Of a stretch of DNA of 57,152 nt, positions 1-54,912 are shown one piece after another. Origin of the DNA: Minisyncoccia bacterium (GTDB taxonomy: Bacteria; Patescibacteriota; Minisyncoccia; Phycocordibacterales; DATDWN01); contig JBAQUS010000006.1 in assembly GCA_049297675.1 (NCBI GenBank), forward strand, positions 1-57,152, in the 5' to 3' direction. The position numbers and the translations under genes are program-made. Position 1 is the first letter of the stretch; the number at the start of each line of letters is the position of its first letter. The notes beneath the pieces were generated by a model. That model was not told where the DNA came from. It saw nothing but the letters and a program-made list of their open reading frames with translations, and did not search any database.

Positions 1-119
1 TCCTGGGGTCTTTTCGTCTAACTGCAGGTAACCGGCATCTTCACCGGTATTGTATTTTCACCGAGCAAATCCCCGAGACAGTTCTCCAGTCATTATACCA
101 TTCGTGCACGTCGGAACTT

Positions 120-417
120 CATTACTCGCTATCGCTCGTATCACGATACCAATATACGAATTAGTACGAATGACACGAATAAATGCGAACCCTTTATTTC
201 TAAAGGAATGGACTATATCTTTATCCTACTTGGAAGCCGAGCTTCCAAGTAGGATATTTGCGTGTAGTCTCTACGGCGTCCTTCGACTTCGCTCAGGATA
301 AATCCCAAACTAATCTTAGGTTCCCTCGGTATTACCTTATTTAATTTCTTAAACTTAGGCTTCACCGATACAGCAAATTATCGAGATTGATTACTCAATC
401 AAGGGGCAAGTTCCGAT
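120..417 (-). mobile_element. group I intron-like insertion in 23S (between GGGTAAGT and TCCGAC, E. coli ~1945-1950 region), no ORF
   Basis: About 300 nt split an otherwise contiguous universal 23S block. It contains an R-like CCGTAGAGACTACA, a P8-like hairpin ATCCTACTTGGAAGC-TCGG-CTTCCAAGTAGGAT and an S-like AAAGATATAGTCC. AAGT is repeated at both junctions, so exact splice sites are ambiguous. Confidence 0.65.
143..190. repeat. ACGAAT-rich palindromic element, half copy, inside the 3' part of the 23S intron
   Basis: CACGATACCAATATACGAATTAGTACGAATGACACGAATAAATGCGAAC matches the arm of the intergenic ACGAAT elements. Confidence 0.7.
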
Positions 418-444
418 ACTTACCCGACAAGGAATTTCGCTTTA

Positions 445-803
<359 letters not shown>

Positions 804-980
804 CAGGGCTTATATAATCAATCTAGCGTCTTGCGACATTCAACTACTATATTTGACCTTCTGGCATTGGTCAGGCATCACCTCCTATACATCCACTTAC
901 GTGTTCGCAGGAAGCTGTGTTTTTGATAAACAGTTGCCAGAGATACTTTTGTTGCACCCTCGCACGCAGCACGAGGAAGT

Positions 981-1127
981 CCTAAATTGACCTAATTCCT
1001 AATTGACCTAAATAAATCTCAAATCCAAATATCCAAGCTCAAAACAAGAAATTACTCCTATCTTGAACTCGTCATTAAATAATTTGATCATTGTTTAGTA
1101 ATTAGAAAATTAGAAATTAGAAATTCC
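981..1127. repeat. AT-rich expansion insertion in 23S (AATTAGAAATT / AGGTCAATTAGG repeats)
   Basis: Inserted between conserved 23S blocks. The arms can pair using G-U wobbles. It is the reverse complement of the motif set at 2469-2552. Confidence 0.6.
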
Positions 1128-1697
1128 TTGTGCTACGCACAAGGGAAGCCTTATTCCGAAGTTACGGCTGCTTTTTTGCAGAGTTCCTTGGGGATCTCTC
1201 ACTCGTTCGCCTTACTCTACTCGAGCTGACTACCTGTGTCGGTTTACGGTACGGATTTCACGAAATTAAGCTTAGAAATTTTTCTTGGAAGCGTGCTTTG
1301 TACAATCCCCTTTGACGTATCGCCAGGTTTAAATACTACTTGGTATTATCATTTAAGAAAGTGTGCGGATTTACCTACACAGCTACCTTACAGTACATAC
1401 TCAAATCCAATAATGAGCTGTACATACTACCCTCCGTCCTTCCATCGCATTTCGCAAAAGTGCAGGAATATTAACCTGCTGTCCATCGGCTGCGGCTCTC
1501 GCCATTGCCTTAGGCCCGACTAACCCTGCTCTGATTGACATTGAACAGGAAACCTTAGTCTTTCGGCGCGAAGGGTTCTCGCCTTCGTTGTGGTTACTTG
1601 TGCCAACATTCTTACTTCGCAACGCTCCAGCATGGGTCACCCCTTTGCCTTCAGTGCAGATGCGAATACTCTCCTACCACTGCTCGTACCTCGCTAC

Positions 1698-1805
1698 ACG
1701 ATGCCAATATACGAATTTATGCGAATGAAACGAATATTCGTACACTTTTCGTAAGTGTATTTACATTCGTTTTATTCGTATGTTTATTCGTATCATTCGT
1801 ATCGC
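1698..1805. repeat. ACGAAT-rich palindromic element, full copy, inserted inside 23S rRNA
   Basis: ACGATGCCAATATACGAATTTATGCGAATGAAACGAAT...ATTCGTATCATTCGTATCG sits between conserved 23S blocks and is collinear with the intergenic copies. Confidence 0.8.
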
Positions 1806-2468
1806 AAAGTGAGGCACGAACAATCCTCAGTTTCGGTACTATGTTTAACCCCGATTATTTGCGGCGCAGAATCTCTTACTGAGTGAGCTGTTACGCTATC
1901 TTTAAAGGATGGCTGCTTCTAAGCCAACCTCCTCAGTGTCAGAGAAATTCCACCACCTTAAGTGTACTTAACATAGATTTAGGGACCTTAAATAGAGATC
2001 TAGGCTGTTTCCTTTTTGACGTACGGAGCTTAGCCCCCGCCGTCTAACTGCCGTATTATAATCCTGAGTATTCGGAGTTTGATAGGTTTAGCGATCTTTC
2101 GACCTGTCCAAACCTTCCAGTGCTCTACCCCTCAGGGGATCATACGACGCTAGCCCAAAAGCTATTTCGGAGAGAACCAGCTATTACCAGGCTCGATTAG
2201 CTTTTCACTTCTTATCACAAGTCATCCCAATGTATTGCACGGCATATGGGTTCGGGCCTCCCTTTTGATTTCTCAAAAGTTCACCCTGCTCATAACAAGC
2301 TCGCTCTGGCTTCGGGTCTAATGCATGCGATATATTCGCACTATTCATACTCGGTTTCCCTGCGCCTCCATCCGGCAAAGGATTTAGGCAAAACCGCATA
2401 CATTAACTCGTTGGCTCATTCTTCAATAGGCACGCCATGACCGTCACGTCTCGCTGAACTCGACGTAC

Positions 2469-2552
2469 GGAATTTCTAATTTCTAATTTCTAATTTCTAA
2501 ACGAATTTATTTAGGAATTAGGTCAATTAGTAATTAGTCATTCCGTTGTGTC
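2469..2552. repeat. AT-rich expansion insertion in 23S (GGAATTTCTAATTTCTAATTTCTAATTTCTAA...AGGAATTAGGTCAATTAGTAATTAG)
   Basis: Tandem AATTTCT units followed by the AGGTCAATTAG motif. Reverse complement of the insertion at 981-1127. Confidence 0.6.
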
Positions 2553-2630
2553 GAATACAATGAGACGCAACGGCGCTGACTCCTTGTAAGCATATGGTTT
2601 CAGATCTATTTCACTGTCCTCATCGGACTT

Positions 2631-2667
<37 letters not shown>

Positions 2668-2878
2668 ATCTCAAAATATATTTAGCCTTACCGCTTTAGT
2701 TGCGGCAGATTCCTCCGAGCTATTCGTGTCTCGAAGTACTCAAGAACAGAAACAAAGAAGATTTTTTATTTTCACCTACAGGACCATTACCTTCTAGGGT
2801 CGTGCTTTCCAGCACATTCGGTTAACAAAAAATTTTGTAACTTCTCTCATAATAAATTATGACGTTTCTGCCTTACAA

Positions 2879-3014
2879 CCCCCCCGAACTAACTTTGCCA
2901 TCGTTCTGTTTTTTCAAAACGACACCATTAATTAATTTATGTCTTTACCAAAATTTATTTAAAGAAAATAATTTTGATCAGAACATAAAAACAATGGCAA
3001 AGTTAGTTCGGGGG
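2879..3014. repeat. CCCCGAACTAA long hairpin element inserted in 23S 5' domain
   Basis: CCCCCCGAACTAACTTTGCCATCGTTCTG...CAGAACATAAAAACAATGGCAAAGTTAGTTCGGGG, a 136-nt hairpin. The copy at 3543-3677 is near-identical. Confidence 0.8.
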
Positions 3015-3449
3015 TTTGGGCTCTTACGCTTTCGCTCGCCGCTACTTACGCAATATTGTTCTTACGAACATTGTTTTCTTTTCCTTCGGGTACTGAAATG
3101 TTTTACTTCCCCGAGTGCACATCATATGTAATTCATATGACGACGACATATAGTCGCCAGGTTTCCCCATTCAGAGATTTACGGATTAACGGTTGCTAGG
3201 CACCTCCCCGTAACTTATCGCAGCCATGCTACGTCTTTCATCGCTATTTTGAGTCAAGGCATCCACCATACGCTCTTAAATTTCCCATTAGGAAATTTAA
3301 AAACCACTAACTTGAAAACTGCGACCACTCGCAGATTCAAGTTATTTTGCTCAAACTAATTATTAATTAGTTTGAGAATTTACTTTATCCTGTTACATAT
3401 TATGAATTTATCCGCAACAAAGTTGCAGTTCGAATTATGTAACAGTTTT

Positions 3450-29594: not shown

Positions 29595-30176
29595 CTACAG
29601 GTGACTTTCCATTATAGCTTTGTTTATCAATCCAACTAGCGTTACTCTTTTTTCAAATGTATCCTTGATAATCTCTTCTCCCCAATCAACACCAAAAAAT
29701 TTATCTATATTTTGCTGATAAACCACATAGCCTAGCTCTTTCATAATTCTTAATACCAAAAGTGTCTCCACCGATTGCAAATCATTTTCTCCTTTAACTT
29801 TTTTCAATACATTGAAACCTCCGTTCACTATGTTGAAAATCTCTCTATGCGGAGACTCCCCTGTTATCATTTTTAAAAGAATCAAAGACACTTGTGCTAA
29901 AATTCTTCTTGACTCTTTTGGATATTCAGAAAAGGAAAATTCCTTTCCATCAACATTAGTGATTCTCCAAGTATTTCTACCCTTTATAAGGGAAACATTT
30001 AAAACACAATACTCTTCCAAAAAGTTTCTGAGTTTTGATAATAAAAGTCTAGAAGATTTTACAGAAGCAAATATGAGACCAAAATTCTCAGTCAAAATAT
30101 ATAAGACTTGATCCGCTTCACCAAAATTCATTGTCTTAAGAATTATTCCTTTTGTAGTATAGATATGATAAGACAT
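29595..30176 (-). CDS. recO: DNA repair protein RecO (short)
   Basis: 193 aa with an N-terminal OB-fold pattern, KGIILKTMNFGEADQVLYILTENFG. Confidence 0.8.
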   Translation of the reverse strand: MSYHIYTTKGIILKTMNFGEADQVLYILTENFGLIFASVKSSRLLLSKLRNFLEEYCVLNVSLIKGRNTWRITNVDGKEFSFSEYPKESRRILAQVSLILLKMITGESPHREIFNIVNGGFNVLKKVKGENDLQSVETLLVLRIMKELGYVVYQQNIDKFFGVDWGEEIIKDTFEKRVTLVGLINKAIMESHL

Positions 30177-30221: not shown

Positions 30222-33200
30222 TTATTTTATATTAATAGTAATAGAGACTTTTGAGTCACTGACTCCAAACTCGTGTTTTTGGGGAACATCTGCGAAAGTA
30301 ATTTTTTGGGTTTGTGTTGGGATTTTTATCATATTATCAAATAAATTTATTATTTTTTCGATATTTTCATTAGCATTTACCACAAGCTCTATCCCTTGAC
30401 TTGGGTTAAGTCCTTCATTTTTTCGAGCATCTTGTATACCACGAATAAAATCCCTGGCAATTCCCTCCTCTTTCAAATCCTCTGTTATGTTTGTATCTAA
30501 CCAAACAAGAGCTTCAATATTTTCATCAAAAACAACTTCCTTAACATTTATCTCATCCTTGATTATGTTCACTAATTCTTCCTCAAATTTTGATTTTTGA
30601 TTTTTGATTTTTAAACTTTTTAACGGTTGCCTAACTTTGTGTCCTGACTTCTGTCTTAACTCCAGTGCTTTTGTGACAATCTCTCTTACTACTATCATAT
30701 CTTCCAAAACTTTTGTGTCTACCTCTCCCGCTTTTGGCCAATCCTCCAAATGCACGCTCTTTTTCTCCCCTCCCACCTTTTTATAAATCTCCTCTGCTAA
30801 AAAAGGGGTAAAGGGAGCAATAAGTTTTGAAAATTCAAGTAAGACTAATCTCAGGTAGTGAGAGGCAGCTAAACTGACTTTTTGATCATTGGATTTCAAC
30901 CTTTCTCTTGAGCGTCTTACATACCACGTAGAAAGATCATCAACAAAGTCTAAGATCGGTCTGGAGGCCTTATCAAGTTCATATTTATCTAGATGATTTG
31001 TTATATTTATTGCAAGTTCATTTAGACGAGTATTTATCCATCTATCTAGAATTGTTTCCTTTAATTGAGACTCCTCTATCGCTGGATACATTTCGTAAAG
31101 TGAAAGTATGTTGTGAACCTTCAAAACAAGTTTTTTTGAAACTTCGTCCACTCCTTTTTCTGAAAAGTTAAAGTCCTCTGCTTTGACAAGCGGAGATGAA
31201 ACAAGATAAAACCTCAAAACATCTGCACCATATTTATCTATTACTTCCATAAGGTCCGGATAATTCTTCAAACTTTTGCTCATTTTCCTGCCATCCTCAG
31301 CCAATACTAATCCATTTACCAATACGTGTTTGTAAGGACTTTTATCAAATAATCCAACCGATAATACTAGAAGTGTATAAAACCATCCTCTAGTTTGATC
31401 CAAACCCTCAGCAATAAAATCTGCTGGAAAAAATGAACTATTCTCTTTATCGAATTCCTCCTCGTTCTCAAGTGGGTAGTTTTGCTGTGCAAAAGGCATT
31501 GAACCCGAGTCATACCATGTATCAAAAACTTCTGGCACTCGTTTAAGTTCTCTCTTTCCATCGCTATCCATTACAACTATCTCATCGATGTACGGCCTAT
31601 GTAAATCTAGCTCATAGTTTTCATTGTGTGGAATCGGAACAAAATCAAATTCTAGTAAACTTCCTGTATCATAGTTTGAATTATCAATTAAGTATTTTGA
31701 TCTCTTACTATCAGCTCCCTCTATAACCGCTTCTAAAACCTCATGTCCAATTCCATGTGTCACAACCAAAATGGTTTGGTTTTTATGTTTGCTATCTATA
31801 TCGTATAAAAACTCTCCAAATCTTTTTTTAGAATCTAAATAGCTTTCTCCGTTTGGTACTGGAGTTTCATATTCTTTCATGTATTTTTCCTCATAATCCA
31901 AGAAATCTTGGAACTTCTTTCCTTGAAAATCACCAAATCCATACTCTGCTATTCTTTCATCAAAAATTATTTTTTCACTTTCCAAACCAATTTTATTAGC
32001 AATTATCTCTGCCGACTCTTTTGTTCTTAAAAATGGCGAAGAGTATATGGCACCAATATTAATATTAGAAAACTTTTCTGAAATTTCGGCAATTTCTTTC
32101 TTACCTCTTTCAGTCAGATGAATACTGTCCTCCACCTTAGCACTAACGACTCCACTTAGGTTACTTTCTGCCTGACCATGTCTCAAAATAATAAAATGGT
32201 TCTTGTTACTTTTGATTCTTTCTTTGAGTTCATTTATGCTCCCACAAACAAATCTTTCGCCTGTTTGTTCTTTGGAAACACCGTCATAAGGAGTTTCCCA
32301 AACTGGTATAGGTGCACCCCAATATCTAGAACGTGAAATATTCCAGTCCCTTGCCCCTTCAAGCCACTTGCCAAATCTACCTTCACCTATTTCTTTTGGG
32401 GTCCAAGAAATATTTTTATTAATTTCAACTAACCTATCTTTAATTTTTGTCACATTAATAAACCATGAAGTAGTAGCGTAGTTTAGAAGCGGGGTATTAC
32501 ATCTCCAGCAATGTGGATATGAATGAACTATTTTTTCCTTTGCAAACAAAACATCCTTTTTAGCTAAGTATTTTATTATTTCTACATCAGCCTTTTGATG
32601 ATCTTCTTTTGGTTTTACTTTTTGTCCTGCAAAGTCAACCACTTCGCTTTTGAATGTCCCATCTCTATTTACATGCTGAACAAATGGCAAATTATTTTCT
32701 CTTCCTAAATTCATATCGTCTTCTCCAAATGCGGGTGCAATATGTACCACTCCAGTTCCGCTATCTATTGTAACAAAATTGCCATCATATACTTTCCATC
32801 CATTTTTCCTATTGGGAAAATCCACATTTTGATAGCAGTCAAAGACTGGCTTGTATGATTTTCCTAGTATTTCTTTTGGGTCAACACTCCTTATTATTTT
32901 CCCTCCAGTTTTAAAAACGAATGGTAATCTTTCTTTTGCTACAATATATTTATTACCTTCAACCTCACCTTCAACTTCTACATATTCAACTTTTGAGTTT
33001 ATAGCCAAGGCTACGTTTCCTGGAAGGGTCCATGGTGTAGTAGTCCAAGCAATGAGATATGTTTTGGGTGAATCGACTAATTCAAACTCCACATAAACCG
33101 AAATGTCAGTAATATCCCTATAACCCTGATTGACTTCAAAATTTGAAAGTGTCGTCTCGCAATGTGGACAGAACATCATTGATCTGAAATCCTGATGAAC

Positions 33201-33722
33201 CAAACCCTTCTTATCGAGTTTTTTAAAAGACCACCAAACAGACTGTGTATAGCTTGGCTGCATGGTTAGATAACTATTCTCCATATCCACCCATCTTCCC
33301 GATCGAGGTATTATTTTTTTCCACTCGTCAGCATAACGCAAAACCGCATTTCGTGAAGCTAAGTTAAACTTCTCCACACCATATTCTTCAATGTCTTTTT
33401 TACTCTTCAGTCCTAACTCCTTCTCCACAAGATTTTCAATGGGTAATCCATGACAATCCCACCCCCATCTTCTTAGCACTCTCTTTCCCTTCATAGTCTG
33501 ATATCTAGGAATAATGTCTTTTATCGTCCCGGGCAAGATATGTCCATAATGCGGAAATCCGGTGGCAAATGGTGGTCCATCAAAGAACACAAAATTCCCA
33601 TTTGGTGCATCTTTATCTAAGGTTTTCTGGAAAATCTGATTCTTATTCCAAAAATCCAGAACCTCTTCCTCTTTTTTAGCTATCTCTGACTTATTATTTT
33701 TTAAATTTTCCTCATTTGACAT
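30222..33722 (-). CDS. ileS: isoleucyl-tRNA synthetase carrying an internal histidine-phosphatase (PGAM-like) domain
   Basis: GFPHYGHIL (HIGH), KMSKS and WCISRQ-like WNISRSRYWG motifs. A ~190-aa RHG-phosphatase domain is inserted between ...GSINELKERIK and ELDLHRPYIDE. The start is set at MSNEENL, although the ORF is open 11 codons further upstream. Confidence 0.95.
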   Translation of the reverse strand: MSNEENLKNNKSEIAKKEEEVLDFWNKNQIFQKTLDKDAPNGNFVFFDGPPFATGFPHYGHILPGTIKDIIPRYQTMKGKRVLRRWGWDCHGLPIENLVEKELGLKSKKDIEEYGVEKFNLASRNAVLRYADEWKKIIPRSGRWVDMENSYLTMQPSYTQSVWWSFKKLDKKGLVHQDFRSMMFCPHCETTLSNFEVNQGYRDITDISVYVEFELVDSPKTYLIAWTTTPWTLPGNVALAINSKVEYVEVEGEVEGNKYIVAKERLPFVFKTGGKIIRSVDPKEILGKSYKPVFDCYQNVDFPNRKNGWKVYDGNFVTIDSGTGVVHIAPAFGEDDMNLGRENNLPFVQHVNRDGTFKSEVVDFAGQKVKPKEDHQKADVEIIKYLAKKDVLFAKEKIVHSYPHCWRCNTPLLNYATTSWFINVTKIKDRLVEINKNISWTPKEIGEGRFGKWLEGARDWNISRSRYWGAPIPVWETPYDGVSKEQTGERFVCGSINELKERIKSNKNHFIILRHGQAESNLSGVVSAKVEDSIHLTERGKKEIAEISEKFSNINIGAIYSSPFLRTKESAEIIANKIGLESEKIIFDERIAEYGFGDFQGKKFQDFLDYEEKYMKEYETPVPNGESYLDSKKRFGEFLYDIDSKHKNQTILVVTHGIGHEVLEAVIEGADSKRSKYLIDNSNYDTGSLLEFDFVPIPHNENYELDLHRPYIDEIVVMDSDGKRELKRVPEVFDTWYDSGSMPFAQQNYPLENEEEFDKENSSFFPADFIAEGLDQTRGWFYTLLVLSVGLFDKSPYKHVLVNGLVLAEDGRKMSKSLKNYPDLMEVIDKYGADVLRFYLVSSPLVKAEDFNFSEKGVDEVSKKLVLKVHNILSLYEMYPAIEESQLKETILDRWINTRLNELAINITNHLDKYELDKASRPILDFVDDLSTWYVRRSRERLKSNDQKVSLAASHYLRLVLLEFSKLIAPFTPFLAEEIYKKVGGEKKSVHLEDWPKAGEVDTKVLEDMIVVREIVTKALELRQKSGHKVRQPLKSLKIKNQKSKFEEELVNIIKDEINVKEVVFDENIEALVWLDTNITEDLKEEGIARDFIRGIQDARKNEGLNPSQGIELVVNANENIEKIINLFDNMIKIPTQTQKITFADVPQKHEFGVSDSKVSITINIK

Positions 33723-33884
33723 AACTTTTTTTATAAACTTATGTTGTGCACGCAAGATCGGAAAAGATCACCATACTAGGTTTTGTCCTTGTGGGGACTT
33801 TTCTTATATTATAATTTACCAATCAAATCATTCATAAATATTCTTATTCTTAAATTCTCAAGAATTTTGGAATTATAGTTTTCT

Positions 33885-34134: not shown

Positions 34135-35856
34135 TTACATTTTTTCTGGAACTTTAATAGCAAGAAGACTTAGCCCATCAGTCATAACCTGAGCAAAAGC
34201 CTTAGTTATGTAAAGCTTGTAAGACGATACTGGATCATTTTCGTCTATTATTTTCCCACTTGCATAAAAACTATTAAACTCCCCGGCTAACTCTGTCAAA
34301 TATGTCACTAAGTAGTGTGGAGCATATTCCCTACCCGCTTTCTCTACCACAGAGAAAAATCTCTCTAAATATCTCTCCAGATTTGTTGTCTTCCAATTCT
34401 CAGGTACTTCGGCTACTGCCTCAGTATCTCCAGCACCATTAGTGCTTTCGACTTTTTTCAAAATTGAATTTGCGCGAACTGCAGAATACTGAAGATACGG
34501 TCCGGAGTCACCCTCAAATGAAATAGACTTTTCAAAATCAAAGACAATGTCTCCTCCTATAGCCTGACGAAGTATTGAGTACTTTATTGCACCTATCGCC
34601 ACAATCTCTGCCAACTCCTCAATGTCAAGGGTGCCCCTTGGCATTTCGTCCCTATTTTTCATCTTATCTAAAACTTTGGTTTTTACTTGATCAATTAAAT
34701 CTTCTGCAGAAATGATTGTGCCTGTTCGAGATGACATTTTTCCACTTGGAAGTTTTAGAATACCATGAGAGAGATGATGGAGCTTCCTTTTAAGTTCTGG
34801 AAACACTTCTCCAATAGCTACTTCGACTACCTTGAAAAATGAATCCTGTTCATTTGCTGTAACTGTTATCGATTTGTCATAGTCAAACCAATCTTTCTTT
34901 ATTTGAGCCAAGCCTAACTCTTTTGCCTCGTATGTCGGCAATCCTTCGGAGTTCAGAAATACTCTTGTATGAGTTTTTGGCTCAAAATTCTCACCTTTAA
35001 AAATTATTGGCACTCTTTTTATCCCGTTAGAAACAGACTCTTCCTTAGAGTCGCCGTTTCGCACGGGATCGCCCTTTTCAAAAATACGACCAATATTTTC
35101 TCTGACTAATTCCTGCCCGATTTCGCCACTTTCACTTTCAAAAAAATGGAAGTCGAAATGACTATCAAGTCTTTTATAAAGAGCCTCAAAACCCTCAAGT
35201 GATTTTTGCCTACCATCTTCGTAAATCTCACTAATTTCTGGATCTGATTCCTCGTATATTTTTTTATTGATTTCTAGTATTTCAACTTTAGCTTTCTCAT
35301 TTTCCTCGAACTCTTTATAACCAAAAGCATAAGCTACCTCTAAATTCTTGCCTGCTTTTATTGCCCAAACTGCCATAGCAATGTGAAGACCAACATCTCC
35401 GTGATACGAGGCTACTTGTATTTCTGCACCATTTGCTTTTAGAATTCTCGAAACAGATTCTCCAATGCAGTTACCCATAAGATGTCCTATATGAAATTCT
35501 TTAAATGGATTCGGTTGTGAGTGCTCAAAAAATATCTTTTGGCCCTTAAAAATTTTTCCTTCAAATTTCTTACCTATTTCATCCTTAAAATAATTTGCAT
35601 CAAAAAAGAAGTTCAAAAATCCCGGTCTAGCTATATTTATAGCCGTTTGTGGAAGACGGTCTTCCACAAATTGGGATTTTATATTTTCGGCGAGGTCGAG
35701 GGGTTTTTTACCAAGCTCTTTTGCATACACCATGGCAACATTTGTTGAATAATCCCCCATTTCAATATGAGTTGGATAATCCAAAACAACCTTAGGATCT
35801 TTTACTCCTGACTCTTTTAGAATTTCAATTATTTTTTGTATTATTTCTTCTTTCAT
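34135..35856 (-). CDS. argS: arginyl-tRNA synthetase
   Basis: SQPNPFKEFHIGHL (HIGH) and a C-terminal DALR anticodon-binding region. The start is placed at MKEEIIQ, abutting the repeat element. The gene contains an in-frame 49-nt repeat copy. Confidence 0.95.
   Translation of the reverse strand: MKEEIIQKIIEILKESGVKDPKVVLDYPTHIEMGDYSTNVAMVYAKELGKKPLDLAENIKSQFVEDRLPQTAINIARPGFLNFFFDANYFKDEIGKKFEGKIFKGQKIFFEHSQPNPFKEFHIGHLMGNCIGESVSRILKANGAEIQVASYHGDVGLHIAMAVWAIKAGKNLEVAYAFGYKEFEENEKAKVEILEINKKIYEESDPEISEIYEDGRQKSLEGFEALYKRLDSHFDFHFFESESGEIGQELVRENIGRIFEKGDPVRNGDSKEESVSNGIKRVPIIFKGENFEPKTHTRVFLNSEGLPTYEAKELGLAQIKKDWFDYDKSITVTANEQDSFFKVVEVAIGEVFPELKRKLHHLSHGILKLPSGKMSSRTGTIISAEDLIDQVKTKVLDKMKNRDEMPRGTLDIEELAEIVAIGAIKYSILRQAIGGDIVFDFEKSISFEGDSGPYLQYSAVRANSILKKVESTNGAGDTEAVAEVPENWKTTNLERYLERFFSVVEKAGREYAPHYLVTYLTELAGEFNSFYASGKIIDENDPVSSYKLYITKAFAQVMTDGLSLLAIKVPEKM
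35031..35079. repeat. CCCGTTAGA-family mini element (49 nt) in frame inside argS
   Basis: ATCCCGTTAGAAACAGACTCTTCCTTAGAGTCGCCGTTTCGCACGGGAT is translated as DPVRNGDSKEESVSNGI. Same architecture as the spacer copy at 3450-3497. Confidence 0.75.
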
Positions 35857-35973
35857 CCCGTTAGAGATAGGAAACATTAGTTTCCGTAATTAATTTGGCT
35901 ATATAATTTAAATTACTAATATTAAGAATATACATCTTTTTTTAAAAAACAACTGGGTGATCTCTAACGGGAT
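35855..35973 (-). repeat. CCCGTTAGA-family element (119 nt) ending on the argS start codon
   Basis: Reverse strand reads ATCCCGTTAGAGATCACC...AATTAATTACGGAAACTAATGTTTCCTATCTCTAACGGGAT followed by G, with ATGAA on both flanks. Confidence 0.85.
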
Positions 35974-39595: not shown

Positions 39596-40912
39596 ATGAG
39601 AAAAATAATTGTAAGCCACGAATTACCGCCTGAGGCAAATGCAATGGCACTTGCTATGTATTCTCGTGACCCGCAAAGTTTTGATGTACACCTTGAAACA
39701 GTAAACCGTGTCGGACCAGAGAAGTTTTTGTCACAGTATTACGTCGGTTATGGTCACAAAAGTATCGGGGACTGTGGATCAACAACTATCTGTGCCGAAA
39801 ATGTTAGTATGCTTTGTGCTAAAGCTATCCAGCAGTGGGCACTCTACAACGGACAAGAAGCTAGTACACGGTATATCGATATGAGAAAGCAGGAAATTCT
39901 CAATCCATTGAAAACTAAAGCGGGTAAAGAAATACAAGATGGGTGGATGAAAATTTATAATAAAATGCTAGAAGTCCTACCACCATACCTTAAGGAAAAA
40001 TTTCCTATAAGAGAAGATGAAAACCCTAAAGTATACGAGAGGGCCATAAATGCTAAAGCCTTTGATATTGCTCGATCCCTTCTCCCTGCTGGAGCAACAA
40101 CTTATGTCGGTTGGCATACAAACCTACGCCAAGCAGTTGACCACCTAGCAGAACTTCGAAACCACCCACTGGATGAAATAAAAGAAACTGCAGAAGAAAT
40201 TGCTGGGGAACTTCACAAAAAATATCCATCATCTGGCTTTGATAAACGTTACGAAGAAACTGAAAGTTTTATCAGGAGCTACATGGATGAGTACATTTAT
40301 CTAGAACCAGAAACCAAACTCAAAAAAAACCAACAGAAAAACTTTAGTTCTACTAACGCTTTCAACACTAAGGCAATAAAGAAATATAAAGATTTACTTG
40401 CCAAGAGACCCCAAAAAACAGAGTTGCCTTTTTTCCTGAAAAAATTCGGCACAATAACATACCAGTTTTTGCTGGACTTTGGATCATTCAGAGACTTACA
40501 GAGACATCGAAGTGGAATAATCCTCATGCCTCCACTTACCACCAGATACGGTTTTAATAAGTGGTACTTAGAGCAGATACCTAAGAAATTTCAAAAAGAA
40601 GTTTTGGACGTAATAAAAAAACAAACAAAGAAAATTCATTCCCTAAAATGTGATGAGAAAATAAAACAATACTACACAGCCATGGGCTTTAATGTCATGT
40701 GCGGGTGTACCTTTGACCTACCTGCTGGGACGTACCTAGCGGAGCTACGTTCAGGACAAACCGTCCACCCAACACTTAGAATTGTAGCGCAAGAGATGGG
40801 AAAGACTCTCCAGAAACTCTTTCCGTACATGAGACTCTATTGCGACTATTCCCCTGACCTCTGGTCATCCAAACGTGGAACACAAACAATTACAAAGAAA
40901 TCCGAAAATTAA
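39596..40912 (+). CDS. ThyX-like (Thy1 family) protein with two degenerate ThyX repeats; putative flavin-dependent thymidylate synthase
   Basis: 438 aa. The N-half has GYGHKSIGDCG (compare GHETPFEH), AKAIQQW.LYNGQEASTRY (compare ARQWFRHR..S.NE.SGRY, with RHR lost) and ARSLLPAG..TYVGWHTNLRQAVDHL..LR. The C-half has FGSFRDLQRHRSG, which retains RHR. Confidence 0.6.
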   Translation: MRKIIVSHELPPEANAMALAMYSRDPQSFDVHLETVNRVGPEKFLSQYYVGYGHKSIGDCGSTTICAENVSMLCAKAIQQWALYNGQEASTRYIDMRKQEILNPLKTKAGKEIQDGWMKIYNKMLEVLPPYLKEKFPIREDENPKVYERAINAKAFDIARSLLPAGATTYVGWHTNLRQAVDHLAELRNHPLDEIKETAEEIAGELHKKYPSSGFDKRYEETESFIRSYMDEYIYLEPETKLKKNQQKNFSSTNAFNTKAIKKYKDLLAKRPQKTELPFFLKKFGTITYQFLLDFGSFRDLQRHRSGIILMPPLTTRYGFNKWYLEQIPKKFQKEVLDVIKKQTKKIHSLKCDEKIKQYYTAMGFNVMCGCTFDLPAGTYLAELRSGQTVHPTLRIVAQEMGKTLQKLFPYMRLYCDYSPDLWSSKRGTQTITKKSEN

Positions 40913-52617: not shown

Positions 52618-52691
52618 GCGGGATTAGCTCAGTTGGTACGAGCAATCGCTTTACACGCGAAAGGTCACAGGTTCGACCCCTGTATCCCGCA
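52618..52691 (+). tRNA. tRNA-Val (TAC)
   Basis: GCGGGATTAGCTCAGTTGGTACGAGCAATCGCTTTACACGCGAAAGGTCACAGGTTCGACCCCTGTATCCCGCA folds as a cloverleaf with anticodon loop TTTACAC. Confidence 0.9.
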
Positions 52692-53262: not shown

Positions 53263-54912
53263 TCACACTTGTATCGAGAAATTATAAGAAGTTACAATTT
53301 CTCTATCAAGTATGCTCTCGTAGCTCAATGGATAGAGTAGAGCTCTTCTAAGGCTTTGATGTTGGTTCGATTCCAACCGAGAGCACAAAATAGGACTTCG
53401 GTCAGTTTCAGAAAAAGAAATCGGGGAAATCACGGCGGATTCGTTTTGCCGAACGGCAAAACGGGCAAGGGTGGTCTGGGCGAATTCGTATTCTGGTTTC
53501 CAAATCCAAGAGGGGGATTTTTCGGAAATGAGGCGGTTCGTTCCAATTTTTTGAACAAACTCCGATATCTCTCCAAGAGATTCCGCAGAAGCAATTTTTT
53601 CCGCTTGAGTTAAGGTTTTTATGTATTCTCTGGCTGGTTCGATCCAGCTACTGACATGCTTCCGCAGAAGCGACTCCTTTTCATTTTTGAGAGATATTTT
53701 TTGCTCGACAAACTGACTCTTTTTCGTGCGATATGTGTCCTCATCAATCAAATTGTCTAAATAACCACTGACCAGTTTGTCGAGCTTTTCATCTATCAAA
53801 AATATTTTCTTTGAGATCGCTTCTGCAGAAACATTAGCTGACTTAGTTTCTTTCTTTTCTTCAATATCGAGCATGGTATGTAATTCACGTGTCCAATTAG
53901 CCGGTAAAGCGATCGTCAGCGATTTTTCTATGATTTTCCTTTTCAAATCATTTTCTTGCATATACTTCTCGCTACACTCTCCGTGCTTCCTTGTGCAACG
54001 ATAATATCTGTAAGTGCCACCATTACCATGTGTCCACTGTGCCGTAATCATCGAGCCACATGAACAATGGAATAATCCGACAAAAGGAAAATCATGTTTT
54101 GATTTGGTTTTGCGAGGTCTGCTTCTCTCTCGCAAAACTTCCGCAACTTTTGTAAATAATTGTTTTGTAATAAGTGGCTGGAATTTTCCTTCATACGCTT
54201 CACCATTCCACATCATCACGCCCATATATAATTCATTACAAAGAAAATGTTCAATGGCGAAATTAGATTTTGTTTTTCCATCGGTTAATTTAGCAAAATA
54301 TTCGGCGATACTGTTAAAGGTATGAGTTCCAGTGGCGTATTCGGCAAAAACCTTTTTAACAATTTTGGCTTCTCTCGGCTCTGGTACAATATTGCGAAGT
54401 CTGTGGTCGTAAATATATCCAAACGGTTTTTGTCCTGGCCATCCGCCCTGTCGAAGTTTGGCTCGATTGCCACGCTTCACATTCTCTGACAGATTGTCTA
54501 TGTAATATTTGGCATTTGATAATCCGATAGAGAGAAAGAATTTGCCAGACGGCGTATTATCAAAAGCAAAAGTGGGAAATTTCAAATCAGCTAGTTTGCC
54601 AGTGTCTAGTAGATAAATCAAACGCCCACCATCTACTGAATTACGAGACAATCTGTCTGGGTTCCACGAAAGAATACCAAACTGATGAGGAAGACCAGCA
54701 TCTAATTTGTTGAGCATGGTGTTAAATACTTCACGACCAGGAACTTTGGCTGTTTTCTTTTCAATAAAAGTTTCCACAATTTCAATATGCTCACGCTCGG
54801 CAAATTCTTTCAGCTCGGTGTGTTGCGATTCCAAACTCAAAACTTGGCGATCTTCCTCATCAGTGGATTTGCGAATGTAGAGAAAATATTTTAGTGGTGT
54901 TTGATTGTTCAT
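53263..54912 (-). CDS. large serine recombinase (phage-integrase/transposase type)
   Basis: 549-aa ORF with the N-terminal resolvase catalytic domain (YIRKSTDEEDRQVLSLESQ...NPDRLSRN), a recombinase domain and a Cys-rich zinc ribbon (CSCGSMI...YYRCTRK...C). The last ~40 codons read antisense through tRNA-Arg, so the functional C-terminus is uncertain. Confidence 0.9.
   Translation of the reverse strand: MNNQTPLKYFLYIRKSTDEEDRQVLSLESQHTELKEFAEREHIEIVETFIEKKTAKVPGREVFNTMLNKLDAGLPHQFGILSWNPDRLSRNSVDGGRLIYLLDTGKLADLKFPTFAFDNTPSGKFFLSIGLSNAKYYIDNLSENVKRGNRAKLRQGGWPGQKPFGYIYDHRLRNIVPEPREAKIVKKVFAEYATGTHTFNSIAEYFAKLTDGKTKSNFAIEHFLCNELYMGVMMWNGEAYEGKFQPLITKQLFTKVAEVLRERSRPRKTKSKHDFPFVGLFHCSCGSMITAQWTHGNGGTYRYYRCTRKHGECSEKYMQENDLKRKIIEKSLTIALPANWTRELHTMLDIEEKKETKSANVSAEAISKKIFLIDEKLDKLVSGYLDNLIDEDTYRTKKSQFVEQKISLKNEKESLLRKHVSSWIEPAREYIKTLTQAEKIASAESLGEISEFVQKIGTNRLISEKSPSWIWKPEYEFAQTTLARFAVRQNESAVISPISFSETDRSPILCSRLESNQHQSLRRALLYPLSYESILDREIVTSYNFSIQV
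53314..53385 (+). tRNA. tRNA-Arg (TCT)
   Basis: GCTCTCGTAGCTCAATGGATAGAGTAGAGCTCTTCTAAGGCTTTGATGTTGGTTCGATTCCAACCGAGAGCA folds as a cloverleaf with anticodon loop CTTCTAA. The last 6 nt lie inside the left 162-bp inverted repeat. Confidence 0.9.
53380..53541. repeat. left arm of 162-bp inverted repeat (includes the recombinase 3' coding end and the last 6 nt of tRNA-Arg)
   Basis: Reverse complement of 55000-55161 with about 5 mismatches and no indels seen. Confidence 0.9.

Follow-up and report, generated by a model that had tools for sequence, protein, structure and literature searches.

A histidine-phosphatase domain nested in the isoleucyl-tRNA synthetase of Patescibacteria and its separate-gene counterparts beside ileS

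The isoleucyl-tRNA synthetase (IleRS) gene, ileS, was found on the reverse strand of the first 57,152 nucleotides of contig JBAQUS010000006.1 (assembly GCA_049297675.1, Minisyncoccia bacterium), the stretch of DNA analyzed here and referred to as the window. The gene lies between argS and a recO-like gene, and its product carries a histidine-phosphatase (HP) domain within the catalytic body (coordinates in Table 1). A first-pass annotation, based on the nucleotide sequence, had described this as a genuine in-frame insertion of a complete HP domain of the RHG superfamily, and the Pfam, NCBIfam and structure-model results agreed on this point. The open reading frame (ORF) containing the insert is a single frame, 30222..33755 (-), with a mechanical start at the TTG codon at 33755. 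Residue numbering refers throughout to the 1166-residue protein starting at the ATG at 33722. The database protein P0269 was identical to it over the full length, and the identical protein was present on 4 contigs.

The window protein scored 869.2 bits with the NCBIfam ileS model (TIGR00392, cutoff 621.4), with the next-best models being those of the type-2 enzymes MupA/MupB, and its best matches in the Protein Data Bank (PDB) were IleRS2 structures. The Pfam domains followed one another in the order tRNA-synt_1 (part 1), His_Phos_1, tRNA-synt_1 (part 2) with tRNA-synt_1g, Anticodon_1 and DUF5915. The N-terminal part carried the motifs HYGH (at residue 58), WTTTPWT (226) and GTGVVHIAP (322), followed by the CP2-3 linker ARDWNISRSRYWG (457-469), and the C-terminal part DTWYDSG (734), DQTRGWF (775) and KMSKS (813). 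The HYGH, KMSKS, WTTTPWT and GTGVVHIAP positions were invariant or nearly so in 61 relatives. KMSKS and the linker were thus intact, as previously annotated, whereas the reported HIGH motif was present as the variant HYGH. The synthetic and editing motifs of the IleRS body are all retained. Outside the insert, the protein was collinear with type-2 ("eukaryote-like") IleRS, that is, Priestia megaterium IleRS2 (8c8u/8c8v; E = 3e-217 to 8c8v), the Thermus thermophilus enzyme (1ile) and MupA/MupB, with which it shared HYGH/KMSKS, the CP1 editing motifs, and the anticodon-binding and DUF5915 C-terminal domains (the domain names CP1, CP2 and CP3 are taken from PMC7955072 and PMC7191050). The gene is therefore predicted to encode the housekeeping type-2 IleRS of a Patescibacteria (Paceibacteria-type) bacterium. 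Since the argS-ileS-recO synteny is shared with insert-less ileS, the protein would be, at the sequence level, an orthologous isoleucine-tRNA ligase.

We have delimited the insert by alignment with known and insert-less enzymes. In the comparison with P. megaterium IleRS2 (8c8v), residues 14-477 matched chain positions 10-459 and residues 701-1087 matched positions 482-869, with 223 residues of the window IleRS replacing 22 of the CP3 region of 8c8v between conserved anchors. Compared with the IleRS of three insert-less Patescibacteria (L082, L085 and L087), the extra block comprised residues ~503-704, which faced gaps in the latter; insert-less IleRS have ~20 residues at this place in CP3. 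This confirmed that the junction is short in other IleRS, and the limits obtained (31611-32216) matched those of the first-pass annotation (31620-32200). The translation of the ORF contained every motif quoted there, in the same order and in frame: ...RFVCGSINELKERIKSNKN, ILRHGQAESN, SSPFLRTKESAEII, ERIAEYGFGDFQGKKF, GESYLDSKKRF, LVVTHGIGHEVL, ...NYELDLHRPYIDEIVV.

In yeast IleRS, the linker 453-ARDWNVSRNRYWG-465 connects CP2 to CP3 (459-526) and lines the tRNA/reveromycin pocket (PMC7955072), and CP3 of the Candida enzyme is a peripheral subdomain formed by residues 473-534, with a topology that varies between Candida, Thermus (zinc knuckle) and Staphylococcus (PMC7191050). Taken together, the alignments and the yeast and Candida CP3 limits indicated that the insert is nested in CP3. 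The window IleRS lacked the four cysteines of the Thermus-type CP3 zinc knuckle (CxxC...CxC; regions 32217-32294 and 31560-31610, minus strand), which were kept in insert-less relatives and in some insert-bearing ones, such as P0002. The Pfam search and the structure prediction that had been proposed as checks both recovered the domain (E = 4.2e-30 for His_Phos_1). The full-length AlphaFold2 model had a predicted local distance difference test score (pLDDT) of 84.6 and a predicted template modeling score (pTM) of 0.75, with values above 90 in the insert and a low-confidence hinge at residues 482-486. The G+C content across the insert (0.31-0.33) was close to that of its flanks (0.34-0.38). Regarding the architecture, it is virtually certain that CP3, peripheral and structurally plastic, hosts a complete branch-1 HP.

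The HP module was then compared with enzymes of known structure. The AlphaFold2 model of residues 505-698 (25 homologues) had a mean pLDDT of 95.6 and a pTM of 0.91, and Foldseek matched it to PspA (4ij6, 4ij5), CobC (6e4b, 6nru), PhoE (1h2e) and the riboflavin-pathway histidine phosphatase 9mmh with a probability of 1.00 and template modeling (TM) scores of ~0.8. A profile search of PDB sequences placed the same PspA/CobC/PhoE-type enzymes first (E = 1e-25 to 1e-21). The small branch-1 HPs, represented by Geobacillus PhoE/YhfR (1h2e, 1ebb), Hydrogenobacter thermophilus PspA/iPSP1 (4ij5, 4ij6) and CobC, share with the insert the fold (TM 0.78-0.81, E ~1e-13), the size (~190-210 residues) and the catalytic order RHG...R...E...H. 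These are, however, free-standing soluble enzymes with 19-28% identity to the module, which is nested in IleRS or encoded beside ileS. The catalytic core Arg514, His515, Arg566, Glu593 and His656 could be aligned to its PspA equivalents, with the Glu593 position being E or D in free-standing relatives.

None of the functional families tested could be assigned to the module. It scored 91.4 bits with the dPGM_arch model (NF038349, cutoff 225), and the other dPGM models (TIGR01258, PRK entries) were also far below their cutoffs. The CobC alpha-ribazole phosphatase (TIGR03162, 85.5 vs. 162.9) was likewise rejected, as was the phosphoserine phosphatase PspA (NF045917, 76.4 vs. 350), although PspA was the best match among solved structures. 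For the SixA phosphohistidine phosphatase (TIGR00249, 28.1 vs. 74.5) the N-terminal third alone aligned, and the RNase H/acid-phosphatase family (NF005567) also stayed below its curated cutoff. As no NCBIfam equivalog cutoff was reached, substrate specificity could not be transferred from known HPs. Sequence and fold thus predict a small PhoE/PspA-type phosphatase and not a recognizable mutase. The label "PGAM-like" of the first-pass annotation holds at the superfamily level but does not extend to dPGM membership, and the mutase role it had considered is not supported. Ap4A-type by-products, also put forward as substrates, are unlikely because histidine phosphatases hydrolyze phosphomonoesters. 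A link to anti-phage defense was rejected as well: no family of the PADLOC-DB models matched the insert, and the free-standing relative P0222 gave a single weak match (E = 4.6e-4) that was judged spurious.

The bifunctional RNase H/acid phosphatase (NF005567; Mycobacterium Rv2228c type) provides an example of a CobC/PhoE-like HP covalently joined to a nucleic-acid enzyme, and it was the best NCBIfam match of the free-standing HP P0008, although the score of 90 bits fell well short of the cutoff (326). In that protein, the phosphatase is fused end to end to another partner enzyme, whereas the insert described here is nested. The role of its phosphatase half is itself unsettled.

We have investigated the distribution of the architecture by searching one genome per GTDB species with the insert and its HRPYID flank. 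This yielded 145 confirmed loci, and the best 80 of the 145 all spanned the whole insert. Nearly all of these 80 were labeled as Patescibacteria-type organisms (Zambryski-, Nomura-, Taylor-, Adler- and Wolfebacteria, Paceibacterota and similar), a few just as "bacterium" and one as "Bacillota". IleRS and insert formed one uninterrupted ORF in 79 of the 80 loci, encoding 1100-1340 residues where complete (a few were cut by contig ends), with one broken locus (L031). The synthetase domains were accompanied by PF00300 in all 120 of the best full-length database relatives (53-69% identity), whose source names read only "class I tRNA ligase family protein" or "isoleucyl-tRNA synthetase", and an exhaustive profile search retrieved 292 clusters (50% identity) matching the insert profile at E <= 1e-30. 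The E-values, together with the recurrence in at least 79 independent assemblies, exclude chance. The survey of Patescibacteria IleRS suggested with the first-pass annotation therefore returned the same insertion many times over, and the nesting of HP in IleRS is, judging from these comparisons, real, ancient and vertically maintained across a large clade.

No second free-standing HP gene was found within +/-6 kb of the insert-bearing ileS in the 80 loci. Database proteins of ~655-670 residues starting at "MRHG" hinted at an IleRS naturally split at the insert; this was ruled out, since in L094 and L081 the upstream IleRS segments lie in other frames, indicative of frameshifted assemblies or gene-calling artefacts. 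Frameshifts break ileS into two to four ORFs in L081 (3547-6869), L094 (1-2242) and L031 (5929-7284).

Conservation within the insert was analyzed in a MAFFT alignment of 80 sequences. Arg514, His515, Arg566, Glu593, Glu626 and His656 were kept in all of them, and Gly516 and Asn521 in 79. In a 61-sequence alignment, the catalytic set was included among the 11 invariant columns of the insert. The insert averaged 40% pairwise identity, compared with 64% for the editing domain and 70-76% for the Rossmann halves. Deviations in the catalytic residues were seen in fragments only (P0004, with Tyr at the second His, and P0002, with RHS). The whole constellation of Arg514, His515, Asn521, Arg566, Glu593 and His656 is thus under strong purifying selection while the remainder drifts. 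An active enzyme whose substrate-binding cap is relaxed or variable would be expected to combine rapid drift with a frozen catalytic core in this way. The catalytic Arg, His and Glu being invariant (80/80), the decayed domain that the first-pass annotation had allowed for was ruled out.

The closest relatives of the insert that are encoded by separate genes were also found in the neighborhood of ileS. Among free-standing proteins, P0008 matched the insert profile best (165 bits), and its gene is flanked by argS and an insert-less ileS. The synteny argS-[hp]-ileS-...-recO is shared with the window. The gaps between hp and ileS were of 1-5 nucleotides in three of the four loci examined in detail (Table 1), which suggests translational coupling. 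Scanning metagenomes with the free-standing clade yielded 80 loci, 26 with HP inside IleRS and 54 with a free-standing HP, 43 of the latter being informative, that is, having enough downstream sequence. The N-terminus of ileS was directly downstream in 33 of these 43, and ileS was present within 2.5 kb on the same strand in 5 more and missing in the remaining 5; as some loci are near-duplicates, these proportions are rough. In L111, L121, L122 and L129, one or two ORFs of 180-370 residues are wedged between the free-standing HP gene and ileS.

The more distant free-standing HPs P0012 and P0015 were not neighbors of ileS, adjacency being confined to the insert-related clade. Both BLAST ranking and a neighbor-joining (NJ) tree grouped the ileS-adjacent HP genes and the CP3 inserts (site A) in one clade. 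This HP clade and ileS form a conserved genomic partnership even as separate genes. When the insert was masked and the IleRS bodies were placed in an NJ tree, insert-less enzymes were scattered among insert-bearing ones, a hint that the change from one state to the other occurred more than once, although this tree has no support values and was not relied on.

Table 1. Coordinates of the ileS locus in the window and of free-standing HP genes at other loci
Feature	Position	Strand	Remarks
ileS	30222..33722	-	1166 codons + stop; likely start ATG 33722 (MSNEEN...); TIGR00392; identical to P0269
IleRS residues 1-476	32295..33722	-	First Rossmann half, CP core, CP1 editing, CP2, CP2-3 linker; Pfam, 8c8v alignment 10-459, motifs
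CP3 N-terminal stub, residues 477-502, TPYDGVSKEQTGERFVCGSINELKERIK	32217..32294	-	Alignment with insert-less IleRS of L082, L085, L087; low pLDDT 482-486
Inserted HP module, residues ~503-704, including conserved C-terminal linker ...PIPHNENYEL	31611..32216	-	Gapped in three insert-less IleRS; AlphaFold2, Foldseek
Pfam His_Phos_1 (PF00300), residues 511-674	31701..32192	-	E = 4.2e-30, 105.3 bits, cutoff 21.7; profile positions 2-165 of 194; residues 522-685 when numbered over 1177 residues
Arg514-His515 of RHG motif	32178..32183	-	Conserved 80/80; His515 predicted phospho-accepting nucleophile by homology
Arg566 (SSPFLRT), second phosphate-binding arginine	32025..32027	-	Conserved 80/80
Glu593 (RIAEYGFG), general-acid position of PhoE/PspA-type enzymes	31944..31946	-	80/80 in inserts; aligns to PspA ...IIEIDHG...
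His656 (VVTHG), second catalytic-core histidine	31755..31757	-	Conserved 80/80
IleRS residues 705-1166	30225..31610	-	Rest of CP3 (DLHRPYID...), second Rossmann half, anticodon-binding domain, DUF5915; Pfam, 8c8v alignment 482-869
argS, upstream neighbor	34135..35877	-	Pfam Arg_tRNA_synt_N, tRNA-synt_1d, DALR_1; same order in L081, L082, L085, L087
recO-like gene, downstream neighbor	29595..30176	-	Pfam RecO_N; RecO after ileS in L081, L085, L087
Free-standing HP P0008	L082 5001-5624		5 nucleotides before insert-less ileS start, downstream of argS
Free-standing HP P0222	L085 5001-5570 (L085/L086)		1-nucleotide gap to ileS; 931-residue IleRS without PF00300
Free-standing HP P0256	L087 2120-2707 (L087-L089)		1-nucleotide gap to ileS; 984-residue IleRS
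Free-standing HP P0268	L092 477-1091		119-nucleotide gap to ileS

HP domains were found at further positions of IleRS and in another synthetase. Full-length HP domains were counted in 278 proteins of at least 700 residues that matched the insert profile: 271 had one domain, five had two, P0121 had three and a partial fourth, and one had partial matches only. Besides site A, the domain occurred at three places: site A', in a later part of CP3 ahead of the KRxPEVxDxWFxSG segment; site B, flanked by YPFEN and FPADFIAEGxDQTRGWF; and site C, located after the end of the catalytic domain and before the anticodon-binding domain. The RHG motifs were intact at sites A', B and C as well as in the copies of a protein resembling valyl-tRNA synthetase (ValRS), the full catalytic set having been read only in the ValRS-like copies. 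The IleRS with two HP domains (P0185, which also has the beginning of a third, P0206, P0250, P0255 and P0262; 1087-1468 residues) carried copies at sites other than, or additional to, that of the window protein. The ValRS-like protein is P0121 (L095/L096, 366-3851), with the motifs PPPNVTGxLHLGHA and WCISRQIWWGHRIPVWY. Its four HP copies, in tandem or nested, were 31-35% identical to one another with catalytic motifs intact in each; the contig has low coverage (~2x) and occurs in two assemblies, and the ORF ends inside the fourth copy. In the NJ tree, the extra-site copies fell outside the clade of site-A and free-standing HPs, suggestive of independent recruitment.

Other domains were also found in frame in IleRS of the phylum. 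P0173 (1066 residues) carries an IS200-like Y1 transposase domain (Y1_Tnp, 340-461) in the editing-domain region together with HP and GNAT domains, and P0357 (1325 residues) carries HP and GNAT. The presence of in-frame GNAT and Y1 transposase domains indicates that the IleRS of this phylum accept insertions unusually readily, and from the sequences, the enzyme seems to be a hotspot in these bacteria at which domains are inserted in frame. Precedents for an extra enzymatic domain in frame within a synthetase are given by the NCBIfam family ileS_w_GNAT (NF040702) and by the CP1 editing domain itself. In NF040702, however, the domain is a GNAT and not an HP, and the window protein, with 328.8 bits against a cutoff of 1999 and no GNAT match in Pfam, is not a member.

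The literature search found no description of an HP-containing IleRS or of an hp-ileS pair, in agreement with the first-pass annotation, although coverage of subscription journals was poor and absence is not proof; no curated model of the HP-containing form was found either. The domain pair is already visible in the precomputed Pfam annotations of hundreds of public proteins. What is new is the argS-hp-ileS adjacency of the nearest free-standing relatives and the occurrence of HP at further IleRS sites and in a ValRS-like protein. This wider picture, with the separate ileS-adjacent gene, the other IleRS and ValRS sites and the hundreds of public sequences, was missing from the first-pass annotation.

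Three independent lines of evidence tie the HP to the synthetase, namely nesting in IleRS, adjacency where the genes are separate, and repeated recruitment in IleRS and ValRS. Based on the fusion, the conserved adjacency and the repeated recruitment, functional coupling is the best reading, and we give a probability of about 0.55 to the HP being an active phosphatase functionally coupled to IleRS. By the mechanism of the superfamily, the HP would hydrolyze a phosphomonoester through a phospho-His515 intermediate, with Arg514, Arg566 and His656 holding the phosphate and Glu593 acting as the general acid that protonates the leaving group. HP and IleRS would act as a unit, as a non-covalent or co-expressed pair in some lineages that nesting would have made permanent in others. 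The HP might then act locally, clearing a phosphorylated species that forms near the aminoacylation site or disturbs it; candidate substrates would be a nucleotide monophosphate such as adenosine monophosphate or a tRNA acceptor end with a 3'(2')-phosphate. A local clean-up or repair role is favored because the insertion follows the linker of the A76 pocket and because PhoE-type enzymes accept nucleotide monophosphates. A specific nucleotide or tRNA-end role nevertheless remains doubtful. Also tentative, and on balance unlikely, is the proposal that the HP is a so far unrecognized accessory activity of Patescibacteria class Ia synthetases, whose substrate would be either the tRNA acceptor end, with its CCA 3'/2'-phosphorylated or pyrophosphorylated, or a nucleotide derived from the adenylate in the synthetic site. 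If true, this would be a third quality-control or repair function beside synthesis and CP1 editing, provided by an ileS-adjacent partner protein or by a domain nested in CP3.

Several observations weigh against functional coupling. The HP occurs at four IleRS positions, with site C being located between the catalytic and anticodon-binding domains, and also as a separate gene, so that no precise geometry relative to the active site seems to be needed, and models based on channeling or on the tRNA end lose weight accordingly. The cap region that faces the substrate (residues ~595-625) is variable in length and sequence, no cutoff of a named functional subfamily in NCBIfam was reached by the HP module, the NJ trees carry no support values, and the coupling gives no account of why isoleucine (and valine) in particular should be concerned. 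The variable cap, the multiple sites, the separate-gene form, the PspA match and the presence of glyA and a thymidylate synthase gene in the block keep alive the explanation that the HP is an ordinary housekeeping enzyme whose chemistry is unrelated to IleRS, for example a PspA-like phosphoserine phosphatase feeding the serine hydroxymethyltransferase (SHMT) and thymidylate genes, or a minimal phosphoglycerate mutase/phosphatase. Such an enzyme would have entered the argS-ileS operon of a tiny, promoter-poor genome and later a permissive surface loop, with constitutive co-expression as the only gain. The best sequence and fold matches (Hydrogenobacter PspA, PhoE and CobC) and the location of SHMT (glyA) and thymidylate synthase in the same conserved block would fit this account, as would a CP3 that is variable, peripheral and tolerant of different folds (PMC7191050), the dispensability of a fixed geometry, and the unrelated GNAT and IS200-like Y1 transposase domains in frame in Patescibacteria IleRS. 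Yet the PspA, CobC and dPGM cutoffs were missed by a wide margin, and a simple route from operon to fusion would yield an end-to-end fusion rather than nesting. The specific linkage to ileS in 38 of the 43 free-standing genes would also be poorly explained, and independent recruitment at four IleRS sites and into ValRS is hard to square with passive co-expression. We regard this explanation as somewhat unlikely.

It could also be argued that the HP fold serves without turnover as a structural or binding domain, for phosphate, the tRNA backbone or a partner protein, replacing the lost CP3 zinc knuckle. The window protein indeed lacks the zinc-binding cysteines kept by insert-less relatives, CP3 is a protein-interaction surface in human IARS1 (PMC13439101), and Tyr replaces the second His in the fragment P0004. 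However, the zinc knuckle is also kept in some insert-bearing relatives (P0002), and both His, the nucleophile among them, are invariant in 80/80 full-length sequences, as are both Arg and the acid Glu, in a domain averaging 40% identity. Binding alone would be an insufficient reason for this, as it would need neither the nucleophile nor the general acid, and a non-catalytic module is very improbable. The probability that a chimeric assembly or a frameshift joined an HP gene to ileS fragments in this contig is negligible. Frameshifted ileS copies do exist in metagenome assemblies (L081, L094 and L031), but here the frame is continuous through both junctions, the base composition of the insert is close to that of the flanks, the identical protein occurs on 4 contigs, and the same uninterrupted architecture is found, at the same residue positions, in 79 other species-level assemblies from many projects. 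The misassembly against which the first-pass annotation had cautioned is excluded by this recurrence of the continuous ORF.

Few known enzymes are as conserved as the aminoacyl-tRNA synthetases, whose cores rarely acquire new catalytic modules. In the present case, a second and apparently active enzyme forms part of IleRS throughout an entire branch of the candidate phyla radiation. Functional coupling would predict that the charging of isoleucine/valine is linked biochemically to a phosphomonoesterase, for which textbooks offer no counterpart, and the natural two-gene version existing beside the nested form makes the system testable. The architecture is in addition a natural example of domain nesting in the permissive CP3 loop, useful for engineering. 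Should the HP be an unrelated metabolic enzyme, it would still show how extremely reduced genomes pack functions into essential genes.

The window also carries metG, a class II synthetase gene, glyA and thyX, and is thus an ordinary housekeeping stretch for a genome of the Patescibacteria. A 438-residue ORF at 39596-40912 (+) matched ThyX (Thy1) over residues 34-211 only; its length is about twice the 191 positions of the Thy1 profile, so that it may represent an extended or duplicated ThyX. At the start of the window, a partial 23S rRNA gene (1-3289, minus strand), cut by the window edge, contains two adjacent group I introns at 190-431 and 442-679 (Rfam RF00028, 77 and 75 bits), in keeping with an origin from Patescibacteria. 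Towards the other end, a large serine recombinase ORF (53263-54912, minus strand) with Resolvase, Recombinase and Zn_ribbon_recom domains overlaps a tRNA gene on the opposite strand (53314-53385, +) and adjoins a second one (52618-52691, +); this region may be the edge of an integrated element.

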